Of a stretch of 64,000 bases of DNA, positions 12,357-61,603 are shown in pieces. Below the pieces are notes generated by a model. It did no database searches, had not been told where the DNA came from, and was given only the letters and a program-made list of their open reading frames with translations. The DNA is from Ignavibacteria bacterium (GTDB lineage Bacteria > Bacteroidota > Ignavibacteria > Tepidaquicellales > OLB5). The stretch covers positions 1,125 to 65,124 of the forward strand of contig JAUQWQ010000158.1 in the NCBI GenBank assembly GCA_030835085.1. The letters run 5' to 3'. Both the position numbers and the translations under genes were made by a program. How positions within the stretch are numbered: the first letter of the stretch is position 1; each line of letters begins with the position of its first letter.

Positions 12357-12381
12357 CATAAAAAAGCCCCGCAAGCGGGGC
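12357..12381 (-). terminator. rho-independent terminator after GWxTD gene
   Basis: GCCCC-GCAAGC-GGGGC hairpin followed on the minus strand by TTTTTT. Confidence 0.75.
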
Positions 12382-12390
12382 TTAAACAAA

Positions 12391-13758
12391 TTACCTGATA
12401 TTAATTTTTTCTTTCCAGTTCTCATCACTGGATTCGTTTTGTGCGGTTGAATGAATCTGGACATAATCCCCGAATCCGGTACTGTTATCCATAAATACAA
12501 AGATCACACCTCCCTGAATTTTGTTGTAGGTCCATATCTCATATGCACGGGTTGAACCTTCATACGGGAACCGTTCAATTTCATCATATTTTCCGTAAAT
12601 CGCATATACTCTTCCCCTGTCAGTTTTCCAGCCCTCTCTCAGATCACTCTTAAAATTCTTGTTCGCATATTCGATCCTTGAATAGTATTCTTTTTTAGTA
12701 AGATATTGCGAGATAGCTTTCCAGTATTTGAACATATACATTCTTTTTTCATCAAGAGCTTTTAAAGATTCATATTTTTCTTTCTGCTGGTCACTCATTA
12801 TATATATAGCTTTATTAAAATCATCATCAACCTGTTTTTCGGTCATTTTTGCATATTCACTCAGCAGGTATTCATTTTCTATATCAGTTAACACCTGGTT
12901 ATTGTAATTCGTATCACTGCTGAAAATATAAAAATACTTATATGCTCTTAAGAGCTCTTTATCATTATTATCAAATAATTTAACAAATAGCTGGTAACTG
13001 TTCGAAGGAAGCCCTGTGATATCTACAGAACCGTATTCAACTTTCGATTCAGATTTAAGGTCATACTTTTTAGTGGATGATTTTATCTCTGACCCGTCCT
13101 TATTAGCAATTGTTATAGTTACTGAATATTTATCCCCCATTTCAAGTTTATTGAGGTTATATAGCTCTAAATAGTAATATAGTTTTGAAAGATTATTCCC
13201 GAATAAATTTCCCGGATTTGGTGTGACTTCCAGGGTATTTTTATAGAAAAGATTATTTTCATCAGTACTCTTAACTATTCCGGTACTGAGCTCAATGGTA
13301 CTCATCATTAGTTTCCCATCCTGAAATGCTTTAAGCTGAACCTCTTCTTCTGCAGAATTTATTTTAGAAGCATCATTAAAATCAGATGCTGTCATTTTCA
13401 GCAGATATGTACCTGAGTCAAGCAGCAGGTTGATCTGACCGGTTAGTTTAAAATCCTTTCCTGAGCCTCCTGTATCTGCTATTGTTACCGGTACTTTAAA
13501 ATCTTTAGCGACAATTGTTTTACCTGAAGTTCTGTTAATAACATCAAGCTGAAGCTTACCGCTTGCTTCATAACCATCTGAATTTTTCATGAACACAAGT
13601 TCTGAAGGCGAAAATGAATAATAAAGCTCAAGGTATACCTTGGTTCCTTCATCCCTGAATATAGCGTAGTCATAATCGAATGATAAATTGGGTTGTGCGA
13701 CTATAACTGATATGTTAAAAATTAATATGAGGAATTTTATTATATATCTTTTAGACAT
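12391..13758 (-). CDS. GWxTD domain-containing secreted protein
   Basis: Signal peptide. C-terminal REGWKTDRGRVYAIYGKYDEIERFP matches the GWxTD motif. Followed by a GC hairpin plus T-run. Confidence 0.75.
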   Translation of the reverse strand: MSKRYIIKFLILIFNISVIVAQPNLSFDYDYAIFRDEGTKVYLELYYSFSPSELVFMKNSDGYEASGKLQLDVINRTSGKTIVAKDFKVPVTIADTGGSGKDFKLTGQINLLLDSGTYLLKMTASDFNDASKINSAEEEVQLKAFQDGKLMMSTIELSTGIVKSTDENNLFYKNTLEVTPNPGNLFGNNLSKLYYYLELYNLNKLEMGDKYSVTITIANKDGSEIKSSTKKYDLKSESKVEYGSVDITGLPSNSYQLFVKLFDNNDKELLRAYKYFYIFSSDTNYNNQVLTDIENEYLLSEYAKMTEKQVDDDFNKAIYIMSDQQKEKYESLKALDEKRMYMFKYWKAISQYLTKKEYYSRIEYANKNFKSDLREGWKTDRGRVYAIYGKYDEIERFPYEGSTRAYEIWTYNKIQGGVIFVFMDNSTGFGDYVQIHSTAQNESSDENWKEKINIR

Positions 13759-13782
13759 AGCATTAAAATATTAGTAACAGAA

Positions 13783-13810
13783 AATGCCATTTACATAAGT
13801 AAATGGCATT
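13783..13810 (-). terminator. intergenic 12-bp hairpin between PorV-like and GWxTD genes (possible terminator/processing site)
   Basis: AATGCCATTTAC-ATAA-GTAAATGGCATT perfect stem. Only a short T-run on either strand. Confidence 0.4.
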
Positions 13811-13841
13811 TTCATTTTTATAAATTTATAATATTAATGAA

Positions 13842-14906
13842 CTAAAAGCCCATTGTGAATGAAAACCACTGATTAGGCTGGAACTTCTCTGTCATTCTGT
13901 ATGAATAATCAAGTCCAAGTTTTACTGTTCCAAAAGGATACTGTAAACCTACACCAAATGAAGGTCCAAAGAGATTCTGGTCTTTTCTTGTTAGACCGTC
14001 TTCAACTTTGTAATCAGGTGTAAATGCATAAGCACCTCTTAAAAATACATAGTTGCTGTAATTATATTCCAAACCAACTCTGTATTCATCGCTTGAAAAG
14101 TTATTATTCTGGAATGTAGTTGAGAACTGTACATTATTTTTCTTACCTATCGGCACATCGTAGGATATCCCTAATTCAAGTGTTGTTGGTAGTGAAAAAT
14201 CCTGTAAAGTTACCCTTCTTGGTTCTGCTGTAGAGCCAGAAGGAGTTCCATACGGCTCGTAATACTGATCGAGCCCGCTTCCATCAAATGTCATAGATGG
14301 TCCGAAGTTCTTTAAAGCAACACCAAACTTCAAACCTGATTTTCCGGCAAGATACTGAAGACCGAAATCTACAGCAAAACCGGTGGATGATACTGTAAGT
14401 ATTTGCTCATAGATTACTTTCACGGTAGCACCAAATAATATCTTATCAGACATTTTTCTTGCATAAGAAATTGATGTTGTAAGATAAGTTGGTGACCATA
14501 CTTCGCCGGTACCCATTGGACTTTCGAGAGTAGTAACAAGCTCATCACCAAAACTCAGTGATTTTAAACTTGCACCTATAACCCCAAGATTACCCATATC
14601 TACAGCACCTGCAACGTAATTTATGTTAATATCTGCAATATACTTCATATGTGAAGCAAGAACTTCCGTCTTATTATTCATAAGTGAAAGACCTGCAGGA
14701 TTCCAGTACATAGCATCTACGCCTGAAATAGAAGAGATCATGGAGCCGCTCAGAGAGGTACCCCTGGATCCTACCGGAATCAATAATTCCGGTGCTGCAG
14801 AAGTACCGTATTTACTACGGTCTCCTGCAAAACTAATGCTACCAAACAGCAGAGTAAATATCAATGCTGATTTAGCAGCGGTTTTTATTTTATGATATAA
14901 TTTCAT
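13842..14906 (-). CDS. PorV/PorQ-family outer-membrane beta-barrel (T9SS-associated, FadL-like)
   Basis: Signal peptide, YGTSAAPELLIPVGSRGTSLSGS...AMYWNPAGLS N-terminal motif, alternating beta-strand pattern and terminal ...FTMGF. Confidence 0.75.
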   Translation of the reverse strand: MKLYHKIKTAAKSALIFTLLFGSISFAGDRSKYGTSAAPELLIPVGSRGTSLSGSMISSISGVDAMYWNPAGLSLMNNKTEVLASHMKYIADININYVAGAVDMGNLGVIGASLKSLSFGDELVTTLESPMGTGEVWSPTYLTTSISYARKMSDKILFGATVKVIYEQILTVSSTGFAVDFGLQYLAGKSGLKFGVALKNFGPSMTFDGSGLDQYYEPYGTPSGSTAEPRRVTLQDFSLPTTLELGISYDVPIGKKNNVQFSTTFQNNNFSSDEYRVGLEYNYSNYVFLRGAYAFTPDYKVEDGLTRKDQNLFGPSFGVGLQYPFGTVKLGLDYSYRMTEKFQPNQWFSFTMGF

Positions 14907-14943: not shown

Positions 14944-17900
14944 TTAGAACGAGTCAATTCTTTCTTCCGGTGTAAAGATAGCTAACTTGATAGTTTTTGT
15001 ACCTATACCGGGGGCATCGATAAATGCTATATAAATTCCGCTTGCTACCGGAATTCTATCAGTATTTGTCAGATCCCAATTGATCGAGGTTGTATTATCA
15101 TCTTTATTTATCTGTCTTACAAGATTTCCGTTCAATGAATATATGAAAATAGTAGCAGTTTTCGGCATATTCATGAATTTCACAAACCTGTCAAACGGGC
15201 TTGTTTCCTGTGCGTGACCGCCATAATACGGGTTAGGAACAACCCTTACAGTTGACAATTCACCTCTTGTTGTAGCTAATTCAGTACTGCCAATAGTCGG
15301 AGCAGTTGTATTTTGTGTTATTACTTCGGTTATTGTTCCAGGTGATTGCTGATACTGCAATCTTGTATAAGGTATAATCTCAAGAACATCACCATTGTTA
15401 TATGCAGGACCACTGTTAATTAATCTTGGTGTCCAAACATATTGAATATCCATCTGCCTGAAATTGGCAGAGAAACTGATATTCTTTGATGTATAGAATG
15501 AATTTGGATTCGGATCGTATGTTGAATACATAATATAAACATATTCAACTCCACCATCACCGGTTGCTTTTGGATTCCAAGTTCCGCTGCTGTCTCCATC
15601 AAAGAATGCAACATTGACCTGTCTTGGTACTGTTGAGTTTGTATCAAGCGGATCATCAATTTCCACCTTGAATGGAATATCAACATAATCCTGATATGGA
15701 GAATTTGTTACAGCTCCTCTGTACCGGTATGCTTTCTGAGTTGTACCGAAGGTAATTTTTACATTCTTTAAAGCTGATACTTTCAGGAATGCATTGTCAA
15801 TTTTCGAAGTATAATTTCCGCTTCTGTATACATTTCCTGAAGGCCAGCTAAGACCCATTGAAACGCTCTGGGGCGGCAGGTAATTGGCAAATACATTCTT
15901 TAACGCTGTTGTATCTGCTCCTGCTAAATTCAAAGTTCCGCCGGTATAGTTCCAGCCTCTTGATAATGACTGTGTTCCCGGTCCCGGATCTTTGATTACA
16001 CCATAATTCAAGCTGTTGATCGTATCAACCTTGAATAAGATACCATCAGCTAAATATGCACTGTTATCAAGTATTGAACGGTTATACATATTACCTAATA
16101 CTGTATCTACCTGAGCATTTTGTATCCTTACTACTTTCCAAGTAGTATCTGATGACCATACCATTTTATACGTAGCTGATAAGACCTTCATCGGGTCTAT
16201 TATCACAGGAATAAACACCTTATCTGGCCTGTTAATTGAAAGTGTATCAAGTGCTTTGTTAATGAAATTTGTACCCATCATCGGGGTATTTGGTATCACG
16301 TTTAATAACTGTGATGATACCGGATTTTCGAGTACTTTAAACGGTTTTCCTGCATTCAGATTTACACCGTAAGCTGTTATAGCAAATCTATATGATGTAC
16401 CGTTTATGAAGAAATCATTAACACCGGAAGGATAAGCATTTGAAGTTAATGTTATGATCCTTGAAACACCATTATCATTACCAAAAGCTACAGGTTTATA
16501 TTCATCCTGTGTTGTACCGTTTGGCTGGCCAACACGAATTGTATCATAAACTATCTTAATATTATCAACTATGTCATAAGTTGCCACTAATGTTCTGTCA
16601 GATTCATTATCACCTGAAGTTCCCGGTTTTATCTGGTAAACATTATATCCCTGGAATTTCCAGCGACCTGTAAGGCCTAATGAATCATATACATCATAAG
16701 ATTCTGATCTAGAACCCCAATATAATGTTATTTTTGCATCTCCATTTGCAACAACATTTACCTGCGGAGCAGGAGGTAACGGAGTAGCTGCAAAGTTTGA
16801 GTTATAGAACTTCTGTACCCTGGAACCTGCTTCAAGCAGTGCGCATACACTTTGATTATTTGTTGAGCCTCTTTCAATAAAAGCACCAATAACAATTATC
16901 TGTGTATCTAATGATTGCATTACAAACGGGCCGCTTACCTGAAGAAAACGTTTATCTCCAGGAAGACTATCATACCATCCGGTTTTTTGGCAAGCATCAC
17001 CATTGTATTTATATTTCGAAGGTCCCCCTGTTGTCCAGTTAATCAGCGGATTTGCACATCCCTCACCATATTTCATAAAGTTGTATGCGTTAACTGCCTG
17101 ATCAGGGTCACCCAAACATTCATTCTGTCCATTCAAAAATGTCGTAAAAAGTGAAAGACCTACTGATCTGTACCCAACAAGATTACCATAAGGTAATTTA
17201 GCAGTATCATTCGGGTCACCGGTGTAAACAATCGGGCTCTGTAAATATTTGAATCCAACTGCCGGCGGAGCTGAACCGTAATCCGGATCTTCATTATCCT
17301 GATTATAGCAGAAACCGATATCCTGTAGTGAATCGCAACCGACTGCATCATCACCTGAATTACCAAGATCAGGATCGCATGCAATAGCTGTAAATGTACT
17401 GTCCCAAACATCATTACTCTTGTTAATGATCTTCCATTTAACAAAATACATATTTAAAAGACCCGGTGCAAGAAATGCAAACGAAGTCTGCTGAACTTCA
17501 GCACCCATAGGTAAAGTACCTCCGGGTAATGAAAGCTCTGAAAAATGCTGGTTATTTGTACAGTTAGTATAGTCCATGAACACACTCCAGATAATTTCAT
17601 CCGGACGTGCTACGCTGTTACCTATACCCGGTCTGTCACCGTCAAATTCAGGCTGATATCCCGGAACACCGTTTACTTCTACATAAGGTGCGCCAAGATC
17701 AACCGGCCAGCTTGCCCATGAATCATAAACTATAGTGAATGTTCTTCCGCCTGCAATTTTCTGTCTTGTTCCGCCATTAATTAAACTTGGGTCATTTACA
17801 TTAACCTGGTAAGCTTTAAGTCTTGGATCGGAGCATACCTGTGAGCCAGGTACCTGGCCTACTACCGGAATATTACCCGGAGAAAAATGAGTATTGAACA

Positions 17901-18228
17901 TTGAAGCTGCAAGCCTGAGATCTCCGTTTACTTTTGCGCCTATATATATACCGGTCGTAAAAATAGCTGTTAATCTCTGTGATGCTGCAACAGGCCAAAC
18001 CATACCTGCAACAGCGCTTGAAAATGTTATTTTATCATAATTAAAATAACCGTCGCTTCTGAAAATTGCGTTAATATTATTTACCTGCAGAAAGTTATTA
18101 TTAACACCGGCATTCATCCTTACCGGAGTATAACCCTTTCGTTCTTTTGAAATTGTATCATTTACAGGGGCAAAACATATTACCCCTGTAATGATCAACA
18201 TTAATAATTTAAAAGTTATATTTTTCAT
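14944..18228 (-). CDS. large secreted protein of unknown function with divergent T9SS/FlgD-Ig-like C-terminal domain
   Basis: 1094 aa from ATG 18228 (the ORF track starts at GTG 18240). Signal peptide. Cys/Asp-rich N-domain (CDPDLGNSGDDAVGCD...PPAVGFKYL). FN3-like module (ITLYWG...FQGYNVYQ). C-terminal VVPNPYYGG...IFIYSLNGNLV...ASGIYIAFI beta-sandwich. Confidence 0.8.
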   Translation of the reverse strand: MKNITFKLLMLIITGVICFAPVNDTISKERKGYTPVRMNAGVNNNFLQVNNINAIFRSDGYFNYDKITFSSAVAGMVWPVAASQRLTAIFTTGIYIGAKVNGDLRLAASMFNTHFSPGNIPVVGQVPGSQVCSDPRLKAYQVNVNDPSLINGGTRQKIAGGRTFTIVYDSWASWPVDLGAPYVEVNGVPGYQPEFDGDRPGIGNSVARPDEIIWSVFMDYTNCTNNQHFSELSLPGGTLPMGAEVQQTSFAFLAPGLLNMYFVKWKIINKSNDVWDSTFTAIACDPDLGNSGDDAVGCDSLQDIGFCYNQDNEDPDYGSAPPAVGFKYLQSPIVYTGDPNDTAKLPYGNLVGYRSVGLSLFTTFLNGQNECLGDPDQAVNAYNFMKYGEGCANPLINWTTGGPSKYKYNGDACQKTGWYDSLPGDKRFLQVSGPFVMQSLDTQIIVIGAFIERGSTNNQSVCALLEAGSRVQKFYNSNFAATPLPPAPQVNVVANGDAKITLYWGSRSESYDVYDSLGLTGRWKFQGYNVYQIKPGTSGDNESDRTLVATYDIVDNIKIVYDTIRVGQPNGTTQDEYKPVAFGNDNGVSRIITLTSNAYPSGVNDFFINGTSYRFAITAYGVNLNAGKPFKVLENPVSSQLLNVIPNTPMMGTNFINKALDTLSINRPDKVFIPVIIDPMKVLSATYKMVWSSDTTWKVVRIQNAQVDTVLGNMYNRSILDNSAYLADGILFKVDTINSLNYGVIKDPGPGTQSLSRGWNYTGGTLNLAGADTTALKNVFANYLPPQSVSMGLSWPSGNVYRSGNYTSKIDNAFLKVSALKNVKITFGTTQKAYRYRGAVTNSPYQDYVDIPFKVEIDDPLDTNSTVPRQVNVAFFDGDSSGTWNPKATGDGGVEYVYIMYSTYDPNPNSFYTSKNISFSANFRQMDIQYVWTPRLINSGPAYNNGDVLEIIPYTRLQYQQSPGTITEVITQNTTAPTIGSTELATTRGELSTVRVVPNPYYGGHAQETSPFDRFVKFMNMPKTATIFIYSLNGNLVRQINKDDNTTSINWDLTNTDRIPVASGIYIAFIDAPGIGTKTIKLAIFTPEERIDSF

Positions 18229-18248: not shown

Positions 18249-21191
18249 TTAATTAAAGAATAATCTGAATCCGAGCCTTACCTGCCTTGGCGGACCGTAG
18301 TTATTAATAGCATGTGACCTTATTTTATAAAGTTCTACTGCCTGCGGGCCAACTGTATTTGCCCACTGCCTTCCTGGATAACTATCCAAAAAGCCTGTAT
18401 TACCGGCTTCACCGGAGGTTGCAAATACATCACTGATAAGTTCCTGATCAAGTACATTAATTGCTAAAATGTACAGATTAGCATTCAGTTTATTGAAGAT
18501 TTTGAATGTCTTATCAATTTTGAGGTCAAGTCTTAAATTCCATGGTGAATAAGCTGAATTCAATGGTGCAATTGGAGTATTTCCACCGGGTGACTGAACC
18601 ACCTGAAGAACATCATATGAATTATTTGACGGAGTGTAAGGCCTACCGCTGTTAAAACTAAACAAAGTATTTATTCCTAATCTTGATAAAACACCGCCCC
18701 AGAAACCTTTGGGTACATCTGTTGTTCCCCATCTGTAATCAAGTTCAATTGAACCTGTATGTCTCTGGTCGTAATCCAGTGCTGTTGGAATTTTAGGAGG
18801 TTCATCACCATTATAAGCAATGTTACTCTGTGAATTGATATTTGAACCTGTTCCGGAAGCAAATGACAAGCCATAAGAAATTGAAGCTCTTAGCCTGTTA
18901 ATTCTTCTGAGATCCAGACTGAAATCAATACCTCTTACTATACCAAAGTCACCGTTATCATATATTGCGAAACTATATGAGTTATCCTGAGCTTTTATAT
19001 TTACAGCCTGGATAAGATCTGAAGTCTCTTTATAATAAGCTGTAAGGCCCAAAGTTACATAATCACCTGCTGAGTGTTTTACACCAAGTTCATATGCTGT
19101 TGTTCTTTCAGGTTTCAATAACGGGTTATTGAAAACTGTAAAATATCCTACGCCGCCATCAGCTAAATCTCTGATAACTCTCTGGTTCTCATACAGATTC
19201 TCTAAAGCAGGAAGCTGTATAAATTTACCATATTGTGCATGGAATACTGTTTTATCGGTTATCGGGAATGAAAAACCAAGTCTTGGACTTACTTCAATAG
19301 TTTTTTCAACTGTTTTATAGTCTGCTTCGTTTAAAATTCCGTCTGCGCCTTTTAGGTTTTCATAATCTATAGGTACAAGAGTATTAGGATCCATATAATC
19401 TACCCTGATACCTAAGTTTGTATTAAAATAATCAAACTCCATTTTATCAAGGAAGTAAAAAGCACCGATCCTTGGTTTCTTTGGAGCTTCAGTTACGTTC
19501 AAACCGTTTACAACATAATCTTCTTCTATTTCATTTCCATAAACATCATATCCGTAAGCTTCCATAAAATTGGAATTTGCGCCATTTTCATCAATTACAG
19601 GGTTGTTAATAACATTACCGCTTGTATTGATATACTTATTTGGATTTGGAAGCGAACCAAAACCAATTACGTTGGCATAATAATTCCTTACCTTAAACTG
19701 CTTGTACTCTCCGCCAAATTTCAACTCATGATTACCAAGTTTCTTAGTAAGAAGCTGATGAGTAAAATTCAGATTAAAAGATAAAGCCTGAGTTTTCTGT
19801 TTGTAATAATTACCGCTGACAGTTCCGGGATTTCTGAAAACCCTGAAATTAGCTGCTGATGATACTGTACCGCCCATACCTGAAATTCCGAGAACAGTAT
19901 TTGTATCGCCGTAAGCCAAGATTGAAGGATAAAGGAATCCATCTTCACCAGGTAAGCTCTGGATAAAGTCATCTACAAAAAAGATACCGTCACCTTCTTT
20001 ATATGAACTTTCAAGATAGGATGCCTGAAGATCATAAAAAGTTTTTGAACCGAATAACTGGTTTATTTTTACATAACCCTGCTGGTTATTATGTTTAACC
20101 AAAGGATTATGATATGAATTGAATTTTCCAAATGAACCAAGCCAAGTTCTTGATGTTTCATCATTACCAAAATAACCGCCGGTTAAAGTTAAATTTAACT
20201 TACCTTTTGTCATTTCGCTGATACTGATAATAGTTTTACCTGACCATGACTGACCATTCCTTGAGAAATTAGGAAGAATTCCGTCATCTGCCCATAGTTT
20301 AGCTACATCCTGGCTAACGGGCTGATCTACTAAATTAAAATTCTTTTCGTAACTTCCGAAAATTGACCAGTATTTGCTTAATTTTTTTGTAGGGATTACA
20401 GGTCCGCCTAAGCTTATACTGTAAACATTATAACCCTGTGAAGTTGTATTGATATAATCACCTGCAATCACATCAGAAATAACTTCTACTGAACCTGTAT
20501 AACTTGGAGCGGATTTAGTTGTTACATTGATAACACCGCTGAGTACGTTGCCGTATTCTGCACTGAAACCGCCTGTTAATACAGCCAGTTCCTGCAATGC
20601 ACCATTTGATACATTAGCCGTAGAGCCTCTGTCTAATGGATTATTGGTAACAACACCATCAATTATGATCTGGGTTTCGCCATCTCTGCCGCCCCTGATA
20701 TTGATGTTCTGACCTTTTTCATCCTGAACAACGCCGCTTGTTTTGGCAACAATGTTCTCTATGCCTCTGATACCGGTGTTTTCGATAAACTCAGTATTAA
20801 TGATCTTCCCGCTATTATCTACAACTTTTCTTTTTGCAATAATAATAGTAGTATCTAATACAACACCTCCCTGAGACATTGTAAAATCAATGTTCGCAGT
20901 GATACCAACACTTACACTGATATTTGATTGAATCTGTGCATCATAGCCAACATATGTACACTTTACAGAATATGTACCAACCGGTACATTAAGTATAGCG
21001 TACTGTCCGTTTTCATCTGTACCGCTTCGTAATTGAGTACCCTCAACTTCGACCCTGGCACCGATCAAAAGTTCGCCTTTATCATCTCTCACAACTCCGG
21101 CAATCTTTCCGGTTGTTTGAGAGATAAGGTCAACTGTGGCAATTGTGAAAATAAGAAGAAGGGCTAAGAAGAAATGGTTAAATAGCCTCAT
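18249..21191 (-). CDS. TonB-dependent receptor with N-terminal carboxypeptidase-regulatory-like domain
   Basis: Signal peptide. CarboxypepD_reg-like domain (GKIAGVVRDDKGELLIGARVEV...GTYSVKCTYVGY). Plug (NINIRGGRDGETQIIIDGV...GGFSAEYGN). Beta-barrel of about 700 aa. Confidence 0.85.
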   Translation of the reverse strand: MRLFNHFFLALLLIFTIATVDLISQTTGKIAGVVRDDKGELLIGARVEVEGTQLRSGTDENGQYAILNVPVGTYSVKCTYVGYDAQIQSNISVSVGITANIDFTMSQGGVVLDTTIIIAKRKVVDNSGKIINTEFIENTGIRGIENIVAKTSGVVQDEKGQNINIRGGRDGETQIIIDGVVTNNPLDRGSTANVSNGALQELAVLTGGFSAEYGNVLSGVINVTTKSAPSYTGSVEVISDVIAGDYINTTSQGYNVYSISLGGPVIPTKKLSKYWSIFGSYEKNFNLVDQPVSQDVAKLWADDGILPNFSRNGQSWSGKTIISISEMTKGKLNLTLTGGYFGNDETSRTWLGSFGKFNSYHNPLVKHNNQQGYVKINQLFGSKTFYDLQASYLESSYKEGDGIFFVDDFIQSLPGEDGFLYPSILAYGDTNTVLGISGMGGTVSSAANFRVFRNPGTVSGNYYKQKTQALSFNLNFTHQLLTKKLGNHELKFGGEYKQFKVRNYYANVIGFGSLPNPNKYINTSGNVINNPVIDENGANSNFMEAYGYDVYGNEIEEDYVVNGLNVTEAPKKPRIGAFYFLDKMEFDYFNTNLGIRVDYMDPNTLVPIDYENLKGADGILNEADYKTVEKTIEVSPRLGFSFPITDKTVFHAQYGKFIQLPALENLYENQRVIRDLADGGVGYFTVFNNPLLKPERTTAYELGVKHSAGDYVTLGLTAYYKETSDLIQAVNIKAQDNSYSFAIYDNGDFGIVRGIDFSLDLRRINRLRASISYGLSFASGTGSNINSQSNIAYNGDEPPKIPTALDYDQRHTGSIELDYRWGTTDVPKGFWGGVLSRLGINTLFSFNSGRPYTPSNNSYDVLQVVQSPGGNTPIAPLNSAYSPWNLRLDLKIDKTFKIFNKLNANLYILAINVLDQELISDVFATSGEAGNTGFLDSYPGRQWANTVGPQAVELYKIRSHAINNYGPPRQVRLGFRLFFN

Positions 21192-21215: not shown

Positions 21216-21258
21216 CAAAAAAAACCCTGCCCATTATCATTCAATAACAGGACAGGGC
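21216..21258 (-). terminator. rho-independent terminator after 21274-23178, upstream of the TBDR operon
   Basis: CCCTG(T)CC...GG(G)CAGGG stem followed on the minus strand by T8. Confidence 0.7.
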
Positions 21259-21273
21259 TTTTTAAAAAATTTA

Positions 21274-23178
21274 TTATTTTACTAAAATCATTTTTTTAGT
21301 TTCTGAAAAATCTCCGGATGTTAATGTATAGAAATAAATTCCGCTTGCATATGAAGATGCATTGAAACTGATTTCATTAATACCGGCTGTTGCTAATTCA
21401 TTTTTAGCTAAAGTTTTTACAAGTCTGCCTGTTACATCAAATATTTCGAGTGTAACATTTGAATTTTTGGGAACTGAGAACCTGATCGTTGTACTTGGAT
21501 TGAATGGATTCGGGAAATTCTGTGATAGTGCGAATCTTTCCGGAATTTCATTCGATACATTGATAATACCGATAGGTGTAGTTACCTTCTTGAAGCTCTG
21601 ATATACAATAGCTGAAGGCGAAAGGTCAGTAAATACCTGTGCGCCAGGCTCTCTTGTACTCATATATGTAACATAAGCTGCATTATTTGTATTATTCTGA
21701 GCTGCTACAACCGGGTAAACTTCATCCCAGTTTGGCGTATTTGTTACATTTACCGGATTTGAATTCCATGTAGCACCGCCATCAAGTGACCAGCTTAAAT
21801 ATATATCATGGAAGTTCCAGTTCTGACCAACAACTGATGTTGCAGTATCAGGCTGAACAACTGAGTATGTACAGTACATAACACTTCCGTCAGCTGAAAA
21901 GCCGATAGCGGGATGACCAAAGATAGCTTCATTAACACCAAACATAAGCCTGGTGCCGTTTGACCTTAACATCTTACCCCAGTTATTGGTATCAGCCATA
22001 AAGCCAATTTTTGTCCAGTCAGCAACTACAACCGGATTTCCGCTGTTAACTGCAGGACTCCATAAAATAACCTTCCATGGTCTTCTCTGGTCAGCGAGTG
22101 ATACGTATGTTGTTGTATAATCAAATGTTGCAAAGCATACATACGGATTTGTTGTATTTTTCTTATAAATAGCATCAACGTGCCAGTATGGCTGCAATGA
22201 ATCGCCATTTAAGAAACCGTTACCTAAAATTTTCTGTGAAGCAGGCCAGGTAACGCCGCCATCTGTTGAAGTTGAATATCTGACTGATCTAAAAGGATCG
22301 CCGCCGCTTGTGGGTTCATTTACATAACTCCATGCAGCTGTAAGCTGATTAGCATTGCTGCTTGCTCCAATTGTATATGCCTGGACTGTATTTGAAAGTT
22401 CTCTTGTTTCAACGACCTTCAAAGGAGTAAAAGTACCTGCCGGCGGATCAAATTCTGTGAAGAATAAAGTATCTCTTATTAATGAAGTGCTTGATACACG
22501 CTGTAAAAAACAGCCTAACTTTCCGTTTGATTTTAAAGCTGAAAACAGATCTGTACCGGTAGTTAAACCAAGCGGAAGCAGGTTAACCGTTATACTTCCT
22601 GCACCTAATAATACATCATATCCAACACCGGGAGTTCTAACTGTTGAATTAAGCGGTTCCTGGTAATATCTTCCTGATGTAGCAATTGTTCTGTTTCCTG
22701 CTATTGTGAGCAAGCTTGCATCGGGATATCTTGATTTCTGGTTGTTTGACATGTCATTTGCGCCTGTCCATGTTAAACCGCCGTCTAAACTAACGTTATA
22801 TCTGATTTTCATTGAAGTACCTGCATTTGAATTAGGTATTTCAAGAGAATCAAGATATACTGCTGCAACAATAACTGTATCCCCGCTTACCAGTATCTGG
22901 CTTAAAGAATTACCGTTTGTTGCGTAATCATTAAATCCGGATAACCCGGGTACACTATCTGCGGGAGGTGGAGGCATAACCATATCTTTCTGATTATTTG
23001 CCACGAGATTTACATGCGGTGTATTCCCGTCACTCTCTATAGTTCTTTCAATAATTGTGTTATAATTCAAAGATTTTGTCAGCTTATCGTTTCTCCAGCC
23101 TTTATCTACGTAATTACTCGCAACAAAAGCTAAAGTTACACAAGCAAGAATGACAAAAAATGTAATTTTAATTCTCAT
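21274..23178 (-). CDS. BNR/Asp-box beta-propeller protein with T9SS type-A C-terminal domain
   Basis: Signal peptide, SLDGGLTW / STDGGVTW / SLDGGATW Asp-boxes, and C-terminal SQNFPNPFNPST...GIYFYTL...KKMILVK-stop. Confidence 0.85.
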   Translation of the reverse strand: MRIKITFFVILACVTLAFVASNYVDKGWRNDKLTKSLNYNTIIERTIESDGNTPHVNLVANNQKDMVMPPPPADSVPGLSGFNDYATNGNSLSQILVSGDTVIVAAVYLDSLEIPNSNAGTSMKIRYNVSLDGGLTWTGANDMSNNQKSRYPDASLLTIAGNRTIATSGRYYQEPLNSTVRTPGVGYDVLLGAGSITVNLLPLGLTTGTDLFSALKSNGKLGCFLQRVSSTSLIRDTLFFTEFDPPAGTFTPLKVVETRELSNTVQAYTIGASSNANQLTAAWSYVNEPTSGGDPFRSVRYSTSTDGGVTWPASQKILGNGFLNGDSLQPYWHVDAIYKKNTTNPYVCFATFDYTTTYVSLADQRRPWKVILWSPAVNSGNPVVVADWTKIGFMADTNNWGKMLRSNGTRLMFGVNEAIFGHPAIGFSADGSVMYCTYSVVQPDTATSVVGQNWNFHDIYLSWSLDGGATWNSNPVNVTNTPNWDEVYPVVAAQNNTNNAAYVTYMSTREPGAQVFTDLSPSAIVYQSFKKVTTPIGIINVSNEIPERFALSQNFPNPFNPSTTIRFSVPKNSNVTLEIFDVTGRLVKTLAKNELATAGINEISFNASSYASGIYFYTLTSGDFSETKKMILVK

Positions 23179-23472
23179 CTTTTTGGCTCCTTAATTTCAT
23201 GAAATTTGGTTTATTACTGCTCTAATATAATAGAACTTATACGTGATGTCAAGCGAAAATTAACTGAATATTAACAAATTTTTCAATTTTTTTGCAACCA
23301 CAATAATGGTATTGCTTAAATTTATTTTATATAGTAGTTAGAATATTTTCAACTTTTTAAACAATACTTAATAACTGTATACGGAGCTTATTAAAAGTAT
23401 GTGAACCATATAGCACCAAATAAAACCGCAAAATATTTTTTGATAAATTAAATCCGAAGGGCAAAAAAGGAT

Positions 23473-23500
23473 TAAAAAGGGGGATAATTGCTTATCCCCC
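23473..23500 (-). terminator. rho-independent terminator after 23517-25343
   Basis: GGGGGATAA-GCAA-TTATCCCCC followed by TTTTT on the minus strand. Confidence 0.8.
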
Positions 23501-23516
23501 AAATTTTAAAAATTAA

Positions 23517-25343
23517 CTATTTAACCAGGATCATTTTCTTTGTATCAGTAAAATCACCTGCTTTAATCTTATAGATATAAATACCGCTTGGTAAATTCTC
23601 TGCATTAAATTCCATTGATTTTACACCTGCAGTCTGCACATCATTTACTAATGTAGCAACTTCGCGGCCTAAAACATCATAGACTTTTAATGATACGAAT
23701 CCGGCTTTTACCAGGTTATATTCAATCTTTGTAACCGGGTTAAATGGATTCGGATAATTCTGTGCAAGATGGTAATCTTTCAGAATGTTCTGATTATTAC
23801 CAATACCAATTGGATTTGTTCCGGTAAGTTTCCTGAATATCAACTGATTTCTGGAAGGAGCAGCAAGTGTTCCGTTACCGTTAAATGAAGCAGGTCCAAC
23901 ACCAGGATCCTTCATATAAACAAGGTTCAATTCATAGTTTCCGCCCGATGTACCGGGATTCCATAAAGAAACCGACGGATATGTTTCATCTATTGTCGGG
24001 GTATTTGTTAATCTTACCGGGGTTGACCAGGTTGTTCCATCATTTAATGAATACTGAATGTAGAGATCTCTCTGGTTAAAACCGCCGTTTGATGTATCTG
24101 ATTTCACAACGCTATATACGCAATATAGAGTACTGCCATCAGCTGACCAGCCAAGAGCAGGGAAATCTATTGTAAATACGAAAGCAAGTGATTGTGACAT
24201 TGTTGTTGCTCCGCCAACATCAGCAACTGTGCAAATAGTTGTATGAGTTCCGTCACTTTTTGTTAACTGCAGCTTTCCGTTTGCAAAAAGATTATCAGTA
24301 GTTATAGGATAAGCAAGATACCAGTTATTAGTGTTCTTTTTGTATACAAAGAAAGAACCTCCGGCAGTAGCAACTGTATCCTGTCCGCCATTTACAGTAT
24401 ATGGAGCAAATGCGGTGTTAACAGGACCCCATGTGGTGCCGTTATTTGTTGATGTAATTTCGAATATTTTACTGTTTTCAAGTGTATCATTTTCATTAAC
24501 CGGGGCAATGATAACTGTTACTCTTCCCTGGTTATTGTTGGCAATATGATATCGTGCATTACTTCCAACTGTGCCGATAAAGTTCATACCACTGATCCAC
24601 AACGGAGTTCTGTCGCTCATTTGAGTTCCGCCGGTATATACTGAATAATACAAAGTTTCGGGAGGAACTGTTGAACTTACATTTCTTCTTGAAATTAAAC
24701 CAACATTACCATTATTATAAACGGAGATCTGAGGCCATATTCCAAAAGGTCTTGTTGTTGGATTCGGATGCGAATATTCATTGAAAGTTGCTGCTAAAGG
24801 AGCAACATCAATATATAAGTTTGCATCAAGCCTGTTGCCTGCATTAGTACTGTGATTTGAGATCACTGCAGCACCATCTTTTAACTGAAGAACTCCGAAA
24901 CCGGATCTGACATTAGGAACATCAACGCTTAATTCCCAAGTTAAACCACCATTAGTTGAAAATGAATATTTTGTTCTTCTGGTTGTTGCACCTGCCTGAT
25001 CAAGAGAATCTGACTGGACATCAATTACATGAATATTAAGCGGGTTCAGAGCATCAACCTGTATATACTCATTAGTTTCACCATTAGTCTTAAAATCATA
25101 GAATCCTGAAATTCCTGTAAATACTTCAGGTCCTACAAGAATACTGTCTGTTGCAAATCCCTGTGCCAAAGGAGCGGTAAATACAATAGATTGCGGTGCA
25201 ATATTGTATGGAATAAAACTCACATTGGAACCGTCCATTTGAGAAACATTTCTGTTGAGCCTTGTCTGGTTTCTATCACCTGATGAAACCTGGAAGGACA
25301 CAAATAAAAGTAGTAAAAAAATAACTGAAGCTTTTGCTCTCAT
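23517..25343 (-). CDS. BNR/Asp-box beta-propeller protein with T9SS type-A CTD (paralog of 21274-23178)
   Basis: STNGGLTW, STNNGTTW and SLNDGTTW. Block LYCVYSVVKSDT...SLNDGTTWSTPVRLTNTPTIDETYP is collinear with the neighbouring gene. CTD AQNYPNPFNPVT...KKMILVK-stop. Confidence 0.85.
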   Translation of the reverse strand: MRAKASVIFLLLLFVSFQVSSGDRNQTRLNRNVSQMDGSNVSFIPYNIAPQSIVFTAPLAQGFATDSILVGPEVFTGISGFYDFKTNGETNEYIQVDALNPLNIHVIDVQSDSLDQAGATTRRTKYSFSTNGGLTWELSVDVPNVRSGFGVLQLKDGAAVISNHSTNAGNRLDANLYIDVAPLAATFNEYSHPNPTTRPFGIWPQISVYNNGNVGLISRRNVSSTVPPETLYYSVYTGGTQMSDRTPLWISGMNFIGTVGSNARYHIANNNQGRVTVIIAPVNENDTLENSKIFEITSTNNGTTWGPVNTAFAPYTVNGGQDTVATAGGSFFVYKKNTNNWYLAYPITTDNLFANGKLQLTKSDGTHTTICTVADVGGATTMSQSLAFVFTIDFPALGWSADGSTLYCVYSVVKSDTSNGGFNQRDLYIQYSLNDGTTWSTPVRLTNTPTIDETYPSVSLWNPGTSGGNYELNLVYMKDPGVGPASFNGNGTLAAPSRNQLIFRKLTGTNPIGIGNNQNILKDYHLAQNYPNPFNPVTKIEYNLVKAGFVSLKVYDVLGREVATLVNDVQTAGVKSMEFNAENLPSGIYIYKIKAGDFTDTKKMILVK

Positions 25344-25368
25344 AGTATTTCCTTTTTAGTTTATAAAA

Positions 25369-28203
25369 TTACTTTATTAAAATCATTTTTTTAACTGATG
25401 TAAAATAACTCGATTCAAGTTTGTAAAAATAAATTCCGCTTGCAAGATTGGTACCGTTAAAATCGTATTTATATTCACCAGGAGTTAATAAACTGCTGAA
25501 ACTTGCAGTTTCTCTCCCGATTATATCATAAATTTTCAATTTAACTATATCGGTCTTTGCAATATCAAACTTAATAGTAGTAACAGGGTTGAACGGATTT
25601 GGATAATTCTGATAAAGCTCAAATTTTTCCGGAATAATGCTTGAAATCGGCTCAATTCCAATTACATTAAATCTGTTCTTGGCTGCATTATTGTTAGTTC
25701 TTAATTCATTAAGATCGTTGCCCTTTACAACGGCAAATCCGACAACTATGCTGTCATTGTTATTCAGGTTATATGGTCCCCCTGATATAACAAAACAGTT
25801 GGCACCGGGTCCAATGTTCCCGTTCACAATACCATTGCTCATTGCATCCCATTTTTCCTGGGTTGTAAAACCGGTTAAAACTTCTGCAGCATTTAATGCT
25901 TTAAAATTGAGATTTTGAGATGACAGCAAACTTACCCCAAGATATGGGTTAGTAGTTGTATTATTATAGGTATAACCTATTTTATTCAGTGTATCAAGCG
26001 CAGAAATCGCTCCTCCATTAATACCATTCGGGGTAAAATATAAATATATACCTGAAAAAATATTTGAAAGCGGTCCGCCGCTTGTATTTTTAATTGTATA
26101 CCGCAGAATAATGTAGTTAGCGTCTGGTGCACTGTTCCATGCAAAACTTTCAGATCTTACAGTAACACCGATCTTATTCACTCCCGCGCCGTTATCATTG
26201 AAATAACCTTTTCCGTCTTCATTCGAAAAAACTCCGGGCATCTGAAGAGTATATGGATTGATCGCAGTAAAATCTGTATCAGATATATTAATCGGTGAAC
26301 TTCCCCTTCTGCAATCATCTGATACTTTTGTATTGCTTATACCAATCATCAAACCGCCTTCAAGCATCTGGTTTCCGGTATATCCCGGGATATTCAGTCC
26401 ATTACCATATGCCTGGGTTTTCTTTCCAACAGCACCGTCTTTTGTTAAAGAAAGTTTCATATTGTTAACAGAATGTGTTGCCCAGCCCTGTCTGAATGTA
26501 ACAGTAAAGGTTGCTGTTGCACCGTCATGATATGCGTTTGCAGAAGTTCTTAAATTAAATGTCACAACTTTATCGTATGGACAGGAAGGTTTTGCTTTAA
26601 CCCTGAAAGTGTTTGATGGCTGGGTACTGTATGAAGTATATGCGTTAAGATTCCCGACATAAACAGAATCCTGAACGATTTCTACATCCGGGTCAGCAGT
26701 AGTGAGCCTTAATGAAACGTTATTGCCGGCAATCCAAATATTCCTGTAATCAATTGCAAAAGTAACAACTTCGTTTATATCAAAAGCTTTATCATTGTTT
26801 CCGTATAATGAATCGCTGGCAGTTTTTGAGATCAATGAAATGATCGGGAAATCCGCTACGCATTTAAAAGCATTAACTCTTCCCGTTCCTAATAGTCCAA
26901 TATATGCCGGATTCAAATGATATATACTGTCAACACCAAGCTTCAGCCTGTCAACTACCTGTGCATTTGTCCAAGAAGGATACTTTGACCTTATCAAGCC
27001 AACAACACCGGCAGTAACCGGCGATGACATTGATGTACCGTTAAAAACTGCATATGAATTATCATATACTGTACTTAAAATTCCTTCTCCGGGTGCAATT
27101 ACGTCAACTGTAGTATGATAATTGGAAAAACTGGCTTTTAAATCAGCGGAATTTGACGCTGCAACATTTACAACATTATCGTAAGAAGCCGGGTATCTGG
27201 GAGTATTTAAACCATCATTACCGGCTGAAGCAACTATAACAACTCCTGCTGCCCATGCATCGTTTATAATATTTTGAGTACCTGCACTGAAGGTAGAACT
27301 TCCAAAGCTGCAATTGATGACTTTAGCACCGTTTTGGTACAAGTAAACAATACCGCTGTTCGAATTGTAAATATTGTTATCGGGAACATCGGGAGCATGT
27401 TTGCTGATACGCAGCTTGCATTTAAATCCCGGTCCGGCACCATGAACATTATTATTTGCTACCTGTGAAGCACAGCCTGATACATGCGAGCCGTGATCAC
27501 TTCCGCCTAAAATATTCGGGTCATTATCATAATAATAAAAATCCCATCCTTTGAAGTCATCAATATAACCGTTACCGTCATTATCAACTCCGTCAACAGG
27601 ATCAGCGTAATTATACCTGATATTTGCACCAAGATCCGGATGGTCAAGATCGCTTCCGCTATCTACTATTCCAATAACAACATTTGTATCACCCTGGGTT
27701 ATATCCCACGCCTGGAATGAATTTATCTTGCTTATATGATACTGCTGCGGGATCGAAGGGTCATTTGGTACGAATAATGCTTCATAAACAAATTCGGGCT
27801 CAGCCCATTCAAGAATATCTTTGTTTTTTTCAAAAATTTCTGCAGATAGATCGGTAGGGTCGATATTTCCATCGTATTTAATAGTAAAAAATCTCGCAAG
27901 ATCTTCGTCACCGTTCATTCTTAATTTCACATCTTTTTTCAATGGAAAAGGAGGGTAAACACTTTTTACATCATATTGTGAAATTATATTATCAATAGAG
28001 CCAAATCCAGTGGTAAAACGTGTATAAATTTCATTGTGGGTTTTAAATTTAATATTAATCATTCCCGGCTGATACTTTGCACCATCCTGGACCCTTAATA
28101 TTACTCTTTCACTTATCCTTTTGTATTTAACTTCAGGATTATCCGTGAAACTAAAAAAGGCTAAAAAAACGGGCATTAAAAAAAATAGGAATATTTTTTT
28201 CAT
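25369..28203 (-). CDS. subtilisin-family (S8) serine peptidase with T9SS type-A CTD
   Basis: Catalytic triad contexts GIVDSGSDLDHPDL (D), HGSHVSGCAS (H) and NGTSMSSPVTAG (S). Long beta-rich C-terminal region. CTD YQNYPNPFNPVT...KKMILIK-stop. Confidence 0.9.
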   Translation of the reverse strand: MKKIFLFFLMPVFLAFFSFTDNPEVKYKRISERVILRVQDGAKYQPGMINIKFKTHNEIYTRFTTGFGSIDNIISQYDVKSVYPPFPLKKDVKLRMNGDEDLARFFTIKYDGNIDPTDLSAEIFEKNKDILEWAEPEFVYEALFVPNDPSIPQQYHISKINSFQAWDITQGDTNVVIGIVDSGSDLDHPDLGANIRYNYADPVDGVDNDGNGYIDDFKGWDFYYYDNDPNILGGSDHGSHVSGCASQVANNNVHGAGPGFKCKLRISKHAPDVPDNNIYNSNSGIVYLYQNGAKVINCSFGSSTFSAGTQNIINDAWAAGVVIVASAGNDGLNTPRYPASYDNVVNVAASNSADLKASFSNYHTTVDVIAPGEGILSTVYDNSYAVFNGTSMSSPVTAGVVGLIRSKYPSWTNAQVVDRLKLGVDSIYHLNPAYIGLLGTGRVNAFKCVADFPIISLISKTASDSLYGNNDKAFDINEVVTFAIDYRNIWIAGNNVSLRLTTADPDVEIVQDSVYVGNLNAYTSYSTQPSNTFRVKAKPSCPYDKVVTFNLRTSANAYHDGATATFTVTFRQGWATHSVNNMKLSLTKDGAVGKKTQAYGNGLNIPGYTGNQMLEGGLMIGISNTKVSDDCRRGSSPINISDTDFTAINPYTLQMPGVFSNEDGKGYFNDNGAGVNKIGVTVRSESFAWNSAPDANYIILRYTIKNTSGGPLSNIFSGIYLYFTPNGINGGAISALDTLNKIGYTYNNTTTNPYLGVSLLSSQNLNFKALNAAEVLTGFTTQEKWDAMSNGIVNGNIGPGANCFVISGGPYNLNNNDSIVVGFAVVKGNDLNELRTNNNAAKNRFNVIGIEPISSIIPEKFELYQNYPNPFNPVTTIKFDIAKTDIVKLKIYDIIGRETASFSSLLTPGEYKYDFNGTNLASGIYFYKLESSYFTSVKKMILIK

Positions 28204-58511: not shown

Positions 58512-58735
58512 CAGCTAAAATTAAGCTTTTATAATAGAAATTACAATGGATTATCTGGATTTTTAAACGAAATTTTAAGGTTAATAATTTCCTCTTTTTT
58601 CAATCTTCATGTAATTTTTAATTTTGTATTTTTTAAAACTCATAAATATGATTATATTAAGTTAATAATTTCAATTGATCTTAACAAACAATCTTATAAA
58701 AGATTGAATTATTAACTAATCATACCTAACTGGTT

Positions 58736-58741
58736 GGAGGA
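58736..58741 (+). promoter_or_regulatory. Shine-Dalgarno site supporting ATG 58749
   Basis: GGAGGA 7 nt upstream of ATG 58749. Argues against the TTG 58734 start in the ORF track. Confidence 0.6.
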
Positions 58742-58748
58742 TATTAAC

Positions 58749-61439: not shown

Positions 61440-61463
61440 TTCCAGTTACAATAACAACATTTC

Positions 61464-61489
61464 AAACGGGGTTAATAACCCCGTTTTTG
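61464..61489 (+). terminator. rho-independent terminator after 58749-61439
   Basis: ACGGGGTT-AAT-AACCCCGT followed by TTTT. Confidence 0.75.
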
Positions 61490-61603
61490 TTTCATGTTTT
61501 GTTAACAGTTCAAGTTAGTAACTATACGTATTTAATGATTGTTTTTTGCGGGAAAATATAATATTATTCGGAATTAATTCGCAAATTAACAACAAAATCA
61601 CAA

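Follow-up and report, generated by a model that had tools for sequence, protein, structure and literature searches.

PorU and PorZ are type IX secretion system (T9SS) substrates with uncleaved C-terminal domains (CTDs), and PorZ is held at the surface by PorQ, which has been proposed to replace PorV at the translocon and to collect its own substrate there (PMC10947112). Type B cargo depends on a small cognate barrel in the outer membrane for its secretion or its anchoring at the surface (PMC9143113, PMC10947112). Myxococcus needs Oar to secrete its protease PopC, in a TonB box-dependent manner (PMC6434023), and in the Flavobacterium beta-barrel assembly machinery (BAM) BamH, an extracellular protein, is docked onto BamA by the FadL-family barrel BamG (PMC12611786). 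Here we describe a protein, termed X, that is encoded at 14944..18228 in a 64,000-nucleotide stretch of DNA from Ignavibacteria bacterium (GenBank assembly GCA_030835085.1, contig JAUQWQ010000158.1, positions 1,125 to 65,124; the whole stretch is referred to as the window). X has a CTD of a PorZ-like subtype, and its gene lies between those of a TonB-dependent transporter and a PorV/PorQ-family outer-membrane barrel, in a three-gene order (the triad) that is conserved across many phyla. It may be a surface protein that this barrel anchors and that serves this transporter.

The open reading frame (ORF) of X (14944..18228, minus strand) encodes 1094 amino acids plus a stop, beginning with a signal-peptide-like N-terminus (MKNITFKLLMLIITGV) and ending in ...IKLAIFTPEERIDSF, with a TAA stop directly after ...IDSF. 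The plus-strand translation of the same interval is riddled with stops, and the gene is thus on the minus strand; an earlier note on this DNA, made from its letters by a model, gave no strand, and every sequence string that it quoted is present in this ORF. The same note called the protein giant; with 1094 aa it is better described as large. The signal peptide is of the signal peptidase I type (18166..18228, minus strand; approximately residues 1-21, MKNITFKLLMLIITGVICFA), with a helix predicted at residues 2-19 followed by a low-confidence linker. It contains no lipobox, and Cys18 is kept in 7% of family members, which rules out a lipoprotein. X was modelled at full length with AlphaFold2 from a 91-sequence alignment, giving a mean predicted local distance difference test score (pLDDT) of 84.9 and an almost all-beta, multidomain protein with three helices of at least 10 residues (the signal peptide, 378-387 and 457-476). 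Residues 1-985 have no match in Pfam or NCBIfam (E up to 10; searched as the whole protein and as four pieces), and only the CTD was matched when X and its profile were compared with all Protein Data Bank (PDB) sequences, the former by phmmer. The top Foldseek match of the full-length model is PorZ (5m11, E 3.7e-7); the overall template modelling (TM) score is low because the bodies of the two proteins differ.

The CTD (14974..15273, minus strand; approximately residues 986-1085) is a T9SS-type sandwich with seven strands at residues 995-1084 of the model (pLDDT approximately 85-93). It begins VVPNPYYG and carries an insertion after the PNP motif. Seven other ORFs of the window, the standard cargo, end in Q-N-(Y/F)-PNPFNP ... 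(K/R)KM-x-(L/V)-x-K-stop and all match Por_Secre_tail, which bears out the seven canonical cargo proteins with PNPFNP starts and KKMxLxK-type ends listed in the earlier note. The cut-offs of the models concerned are 23 bits for TIGR04183 (type A), 27 bits for PF18962 (Por_Secre_tail) and 260 bits for the PorZ equivalog NF052228. On TIGR04183, X scores 18.6 bits at full length and 21.7 bits with its last 109 residues, both below the cut-off, whereas the seven standard tails, taken at the same length, score 40.6-56 bits; Por_Secre_tail gives X 14.7-18.4 bits, also below its cut-off. With the same last 109 residues the PorZ model gives 34.2 bits (E 9.7e-9, model positions 669-755 of 757), and it is matched by one of the seven standard tails, at 19.4 bits. 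The type B model TIGR04131 (CHU_C) has no match, either with full-length X at E<=10 or with the CTD alone at E<=1. The divergence of this CTD was thus rightly noticed in the earlier note.

PorZ is the best NCBIfam family for all 28 of a set of diverse homologue CTDs (best E 8e-13), 27 of which also match the type A model and 26 the PorU tail. A profile of the CTD compared with all PDB sequences finds PorU first (6za2, E 0.0023) and then PorZ (5m11, E 0.004), with the whole CTD aligned in the latter. An hhalign comparison of the X-family CTD with the seven standard type A tails gave a probability of 95.3% over 51 core columns and, on this profile evidence, the core of the X CTD is homologous to the type A core. 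The earlier note went too far in holding that the domain would be recognised by the adjacent barrel rather than by the general T9SS route, since that core is shared. By terminal position X does not belong to type A, as nine residues lie beyond the last strand and the final basic residue of KKMxLxK is lacking. The X CTD is a distinct PorZ-like subtype, neither standard type A nor type B. X as an orthologue of PorZ is ruled out by the score and by the absence of beta-propellers. An M6/InhA-like inactivated protease model (NF052323) was also set aside: only its standard tail matches, and ordinary cargo of the window matches it better.

The nine residues after the last strand (K-x-A-I-F) form a C-terminal extension, TPEERIDSF (14947..14973, minus strand), whose terminal aromatic residue is conserved. 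In the 91-sequence alignment it follows the pattern x-(E/Q)-x-(E/Q)-(R/Q)-(L/I)-D-x-(F/Y/W), with I or L as the end in one clade, and it recurs in approximately 90 homologues from several phyla; the nine extra residues ending in Phe that had been pointed out beforehand are therefore a family feature. PorZ has no such tail, its alignment with the X CTD stopping 1-2 residues from the PorZ C-terminus. The pLDDT of the tail is low in the monomer model of X, and the tail is therefore probably ordered only on a bound partner. A mis-called stop is ruled out by the conservation of the tail in homologues across phyla and by the TAA directly after ...IDSF. That X is ordinary type A cargo whose odd C-terminus is explained by a stop called in error, a frameshift or divergence at that site can be regarded as refuted: the core homology and the few homologues named as type A proteins would suit it, but the tail and the PNPYY start are conserved in approximately 90 homologues from several phyla, and the type A score is below the cut-off where the seven neighbours reach 40.6-56 bits.

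The first gene of the triad encodes a TonB-dependent transporter (18249..21191, minus strand; 980 aa) with a CarboxypepD_reg extension, a plug and a 22-strand-type barrel (Oar/SusC-type). Three Pfam models pass their cut-offs, CarboxypepD_reg with 62 bits (cut-off 32.3), Plug with 34.6 bits (23.9) and TonB_dep_Rec_b-barrel with 98.6 bits (27). X is the second gene, and the third (13842..14906, minus strand) encodes a PorV/PorQ-family outer-membrane barrel of 354 aa and 14-strand type, here called PorQ-like. It matches NF033709 with 171.6 bits (cut-off 90) over model positions 1-322 of 326, in agreement with the PorV/PorQ-like neighbour that the earlier note had named, and stays below the equivalog cut-offs of PorQ (85 of 220 bits), PorV (56.9 of 250) and PorV2 (85.5 of 325). 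These scores place the partner barrel in a separate clade of the PorV/PorQ family, nearest PorQ. The gaps between the genes are 20 nt (transporter to X) and 37 nt (X to barrel).

The X family is large, with 273 homologues found by word-index search, and 6,452 representatives of 50%-identity clusters at E<=1e-30 (12,056 at E<=1e-10), the top 150 of which are nearly all full length. Nearly all members are named 'hypothetical protein' in the databases and a few 'T9SS type A sorting domain-containing protein'. Scanning a single genome for each species gave at least 595 relatives, and gene order was counted in the 80 best loci plus five fetched earlier. The transporter is directly upstream of X in 62 of 74 assessable loci, a PorV/PorQ-family barrel is directly downstream in 70 of 82, and the full triad in the same order and orientation is present in 58 of the 70 loci with both flanks assessable; several of the 'exceptions' are split ORFs. 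The link between this CTD subtype and a dedicated barrel thus stands, although an adjacent barrel is not universal, as the earlier note had wondered whether it might be (exceptions are L060, L079 and L010). The transporter, which that note missed, is an equally conserved partner, and this changes the likely function.

Triad order was seen in all the distant homologues first examined (Marinimicrobia, Eisenbacteria, Zixibacteria and a 'Bacteroidota' metagenome-assembled genome (MAG) with two tandem modules), and the loci as a whole come from Ignavibacteria, Melioribacter, Kryptonia, Zixibacteria, Eisenbacteria, Latescibacteria, Marinimicrobia/Neomarinimicrobiota, Fidelibacterota, Calditrichaceae, Rhodothermales, Handelsmanbacteria and Chlorobi-labelled MAGs. 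The motifs of the plug are kept in 62 partner transporters, and the plug of the window transporter is intact. Each of the 25 partner barrels that were tested is a PorV/PorQ-family member (NF033709), with PorQ as the best equivalog. The NCBIfam BamG model is also weakly matched by four of these 25 barrels (best E 6.5e-7). The pairwise-identity matrices of transporter, X and barrel co-vary (r 0.76-0.87, Mantel p 0.001). No description of the triad or of the X family was found in the open-access literature, where absence is not proof.

Of 68 X genes that combine the variant CTD with an aromatic end, 63 have the barrel directly downstream. Two tandem X paralogues at locus L055 (L055:3508-7590 and L055:7829-10975; E 5e-53 and 3e-63) have a standard type A tail (LEQNYPNPFNP...QVKKMVLLR), and neither a transporter nor a PorQ-like gene lies alongside. 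This natural domain swap without a barrel supports the pairing of CTD and barrel, with very few counter-examples of its kind behind it. Modules are also duplicated in tandem, as two transporter-X units at L005:4827-19552 and three X plus three PorQ-like genes within 15 kb at L037:1-15423, and one Melioribacter MAG has at least three separate X loci (L031, L060, L068). Such tandem duplicated modules are more in keeping with diversified uptake systems than with one part of a machinery.

The N-domain of X (16768..18120, minus strand; residues 37-487) is predicted to be a beta-supersandwich closed by a long helix and bearing a conserved acidic cluster. Modelled alone, it has a pLDDT of 93.5 and a predicted TM score of 0.93. 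Its best Foldseek matches in the PDB are the cellobiose and chitobiose phosphorylases of glycoside hydrolase (GH) family 94, the GH15 dextran dextrinase, and GH116, GH149 and GH161 enzymes (E 3e-6 to 1e-3, probability approximately 1.0, TM 0.3-0.41, identity 8-10%). In enzymes of the GH94, GH116, GH15, GH149 and GH161 types, a beta-sandwich at the N-terminus is joined to a catalytic (alpha/alpha)6 barrel. Because X has just three helices of at least 10 residues, the sandwich is presumably the matching part, and the model suggests that the N-domain corresponds to the non-catalytic N-terminal sandwich of these enzymes, their catalytic domain being absent from X. The N-domains of X and six distant homologues have no Pfam match, and that of X has no NCBIfam match either; without an (alpha/alpha)6 domain or a sequence match, the N-domain does not belong to GH94, GH116 or GH15. 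No enzyme family could be assigned to it, as neither Pfam, NCBIfam nor the PDB sequences gave a match, and the earlier description of this part of the protein as unassignable holds for the whole of residues 1-985. Neither of the two outcomes that the earlier note named as refuting it came about, the N-domain matching no enzyme family and the C-terminus scoring unlike the seven type A tails.

Thirteen acidic positions of the N-domain are at least 94% conserved among distant members, including D219, E244, D285, D287, D293, D294, D299, D314, D374, D425 and D441, and R427, Y308 and N309 are conserved as well. In the model, most of the conserved residues sit in adjacent hairpin loops within the strands at 275-330, a cluster that suggests a Ca2+ or ligand site. 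The N-domain has nine cysteines, of which only C298 (approximately 81-86%) and C307 (approximately 50%) are conserved outside the close clade. Of the label 'Cys/Asp-rich' given to this domain beforehand, the acidic half is a family property and the Cys half is not. C132, C223, C371, C391, C413 and C462 occur only in the close Ignavibacteria clade (approximately 30% of the alignment, 0% of distant members) and may form three clade-specific disulfides.

After a Pro-rich linker, the strand pattern of the model indicates a fibronectin type III (FN3)-like beta-sandwich region (16279..16767, minus strand; approximately residues 488-650). The FN3-like module proposed in the earlier note is upheld at the level of fold, with Foldseek matches to fibronectin type III arrays (6mfa, 6tpw and 5n47; E 2e-5 to 4e-4), and not at the level of family, Pfam giving no match. 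The variable middle region that follows (15274..16278, minus strand; approximately residues 651-985) contains further predicted beta-sandwiches, is the least conserved part of the family and has no family match.

We propose that Sec would take X to the periplasm by its signal peptide and that the T9SS translocon would then pass it across the outer membrane, guided by the PorZ-type CTD. The simplest reading of export, by analogy with the proposal for PorZ and PorQ, is that the normal T9SS translocon is used, with the PorQ-like barrel as carrier or anchor (PMC10947112). Where the PorU sortase cuts the CTDs of type A cargo, X would keep its own, and the PorQ-like barrel would bind this CTD and the aromatic-ended tail non-covalently, giving a permanent hold at the surface as PorQ does with PorZ. 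With the small barrel beside the transporter, the ectodomain of X would stand over or beside the transporter mouth, capture a ligand and hand it over for TonB-dependent import. The ligand would most plausibly be a glycan or another large or charged nutrient; the supersandwich, a fold associated with carbohydrate enzymes, was counted in favour of uptake, and in the predicted structure it hints at a glycan, the weakest link of the chain. We consider the anchoring part of this mechanism probable. The whole chain, from T9SS export through anchoring by a retained CTD to service of the co-encoded transporter, seems to us evenly poised between right and wrong. The broader proposal that the triad is a superphylum-wide uptake machine, in which a T9SS substrate and not a lipoprotein such as SusD, RagB or BtuG is the capture or lid protein of the transporter, permanently tethered by its uncleaved CTD and tail to a dedicated PorQ-like adaptor barrel, is tentative, and we lean somewhat against it.

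Several observations weigh against this interpretation. The 34 bits on the PorZ model are far below the 260 bits of its full-length criterion, which describes a protein with two beta-propellers, and full-length X has no PorZ match in an hmmscan against NCBIfam even at E<=10; the CTD had to be searched alone, and full-length annotation pipelines would miss the signal. The E-values of the CTD profile against PDB sequences are modest (0.002-0.004), and species phylogeny is a confounder in the co-variation between the three. At L060:5767-13567 there are three shorter X members (approximately 870 aa) in tandem, two of them with the variant CTD and an aromatic tail (…IPDNF and …LPDRY), with no barrel or transporter within 6 kb, and L079 and L010 are similar exceptions; the X proteins of these three loci may make common use of barrels whose genes lie elsewhere. 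Triads are frequently surrounded by housekeeping genes (SecA, ClpP, ribosomal proteins), unlike nutrient-utilisation loci with their enzymes and regulators. The motifs of the N-domain are near-invariant across phyla, which is odd for binding proteins with diverse ligands and could instead reflect a common enzymatic, structural or transporter-docking role.

That last point bears on the view that X is a surface enzyme or adhesin (for example a new hydrolase or lyase that is glycan-active or metal-dependent, or a protein of matrix or S-layer type) with the barrel for anchoring only and no hand-over. Its approximately 13 acidic residues, with R427, Y308 and N309, cluster in hairpin loops like a catalytic or Ca2+ site, and the FN3-like and beta-sandwich spacers resemble those of surface enzymes. 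Supersandwich domains are catalytic in some carbohydrate-active enzymes, such as aldose epimerases and lyases of polysaccharide lyase family 4 (PL4), and the fold thus admits a catalytic role. No catalytic domain was matched by sequence or fold, however, the matched proteins appear to use the fold as a non-catalytic N-domain, and no nucleophile of the His, Ser or Cys type is evident among the conserved residues. Mere anchoring would also leave the conserved, plug-containing first gene unexplained, and we regard this view as unlikely, if worth keeping in mind. Near-invariant motifs and a glycan-associated fold would also suit a counterpart of PorZ in FCB (Fibrobacteres-Chlorobi-Bacteroidetes) phyla other than Bacteroidia, a PorQ-held part of the attachment complex whose supersandwich binds a surface glycolipid and presents it to the sortase PorU, the transporter being incidental or concerned with envelope biogenesis. 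The PorZ-like CTD, PorZ as top structural match, the PorQ-like partner and the housekeeping neighbourhoods expected of a machinery part all speak for such a role. X nevertheless lacks the two beta-propellers of PorZ and has 34 bits against a cut-off of 260, and there are several paralogous modules to a genome, with tandem copies in some cases (L005, L037; the Melioribacter MAG has three loci). The transporter is moreover conserved as tightly as the barrel, which a PorZ role leaves unexplained, and this role is in our judgement distinctly unlikely.

Another explanation takes the transporter as the exporter: X would pass through the co-encoded Oar-type protein, powered by TonB, and then be held by the barrel, as a self-contained unit independent of the T9SS translocon. 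The upstream transporter does have the Oar architecture of CarboxypepD_reg extension, plug and barrel, Oar and PopC provide a precedent in Myxococcus (PMC6434023), and the strict adjacency and co-divergence of X and transporter (r 0.87) suit a dedicated exporter and its cargo equally well. This architecture is, though, the commonest among transporters in Bacteroidetes, and PopC is not a neighbour of oar and lacks a CTD of this kind. X contains a domain homologous to T9SS CTDs in a genome whose use of the T9SS is clear from the seven standard cargo proteins of the window, its family is confined to phyla of the FCB group, where the T9SS occurs, and a folded 120-kDa all-beta protein would need to cross a plugged 22-strand barrel. 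We give export by the transporter only a slim chance.

The interpretation of X as a barrel-anchored T9SS substrate that serves its transporter shares features with several known systems and coincides with none of them. The closest is PorZ-PorQ of the Porphyromonas gingivalis attachment complex, in that the CTD of X is closest to that of PorZ and the partner barrel is closest to PorQ. It differs in that the body of X consists of a supersandwich, an FN3-like region and beta-sandwiches without propellers, and in that X has the aromatic-ended nine-residue tail and PorZ none. Furthermore, porZ and porQ are unlinked single genes, whereas X and its barrel are encoded side by side and in several copies, with the transporter as a third conserved partner. 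Type B cargo with PorP/SprF-like barrels, as in SprB-SprF, is likewise a protein with a CTD that is not of type A, encoded beside its own small barrel; the X CTD, however, has no TIGR04131 match, the barrel is of the PorV/PorQ and not the PorP/SprF family, and type B pairs have no transporter.

As in SusCD, RagAB and BtuB-BtuG, a CarboxypepD_reg transporter adjoins a large surface partner, and the modules are paralogous and sometimes in tandem. Unlike the partners in those systems, X is not a lipoprotein, has an all-beta and not the helical SusD fold (a Pfam scan found no SusD match in X), and would use the T9SS and be held by a third protein. The triad transporter is also not SusC/RagA, as TIGR04056 matches its N-terminal part only, with 35.2 bits against a cut-off of 368. 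Cooperation in uptake would be drawn by analogy, and X may resemble SusCD-type systems in purpose. Oar of Myxococcus xanthus has the same domain architecture as the triad transporter (PMC6434023), but PopC is without a T9SS-like CTD, its gene does not adjoin oar and no PorQ-like barrel takes part. The N-terminal sandwiches of GH94, GH116, GH15, GH149 and GH161 enzymes are the best fold matches of the N-domain, at 8-10% identity and with the (alpha/alpha)6 catalytic domain that X lacks. In BamG-BamH, a FadL/PorV-like 14-strand barrel is the adaptor that docks an extracellular protein beside a larger barrel; BamH, though, belongs to the lipoproteins, BamA is the larger barrel there and the complex assembles outer-membrane proteins, which makes it an architectural precedent only. 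Judged by these sequence matches, X is outside type A, type B, PorZ, SusD and any GH family, and is like PorZ-PorQ in anchoring and like type B/SprF in gene logic.

If that broader proposal is correct, PorQ-PorZ would be one specialised case of a much larger and older anchoring system of cognate barrel plus retained CTD, and type IX secretion would be linked directly to TonB-dependent import. The proposed mechanism, if right, would generalise PorZ-PorQ, as work on CTD retention by PorZ and PorU and on the role of PorQ concerns essentially a single organism. PorZ-type domains with cognate barrels occur naturally by the thousand, with the PNPYY start, the insertion and the ERLDxF-like tail as signatures, and make a recognition code testable. 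Ignavibacteria, Marinimicrobia, Zixibacteria, Latescibacteria, Eisenbacteria and Calditrichaeota, FCB phyla that are abundant in sediments, oceans and bioreactors, may on this mechanism equip their transporters without SusD-type lipoproteins. The family also marks an annotation gap, having 6,452 cluster representatives and yet no Pfam or NCBIfam model for residues 1-985.

The triad is followed in the window by a gene for a GWxTD-domain protein (12391..13758, minus strand; 455 aa; PF20094 52 bits, TIGR04514 73.9 bits), an optional fourth member. Across several phyla, a GWxTD gene comes after the triad in 13 of the 70 loci that could be assessed, and at others it is located close by (seen at L002, L006-L012, L024, L031, L035, L042, L053, L058-L061, L066, L071 and L081). 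No mention of GWxTD was found in the open-access literature. An intrinsic-terminator-like site with an 8-bp stem, 6 G-C pairs and a T-run (12364..12383, minus strand) lies directly after the GWxTD gene and, from its sequence, is where the transcription unit likely ends. Between the PorQ-like and GWxTD genes there is a perfect 15-bp palindromic hairpin (13780..13813; GAAAATGCCATTTAC-ATAA-GTAAATGGCATTTTC on the plus strand), which could be a bidirectional terminator, an attenuator or a protein-binding site. A terminator-like hairpin with a run of eight Ts (21217..21257, minus strand), read by eye from the sequence, follows the upstream cargo gene and precedes the ribosome-binding site (GGAGG) and ATG of the transporter; a pattern scanner was silent on it because the loop is long. 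Terminator-like hairpins thus bracket the unit.

The window has a G+C content of 37.7%, and none of ten further ORFs examined in it is a T9SS core gene. The seven standard type A cargo genes lie within these 64 kb at 21274-28203 (minus strand) and at 44627-46351, 50975-53431 and 58734-63580 (plus strand), three of them directly upstream of the triad on the same strand. Their products include an S8 subtilase (944 aa), BNR/sortilin-Vps10-like proteins and an FG-GAP/ASPIC protein.

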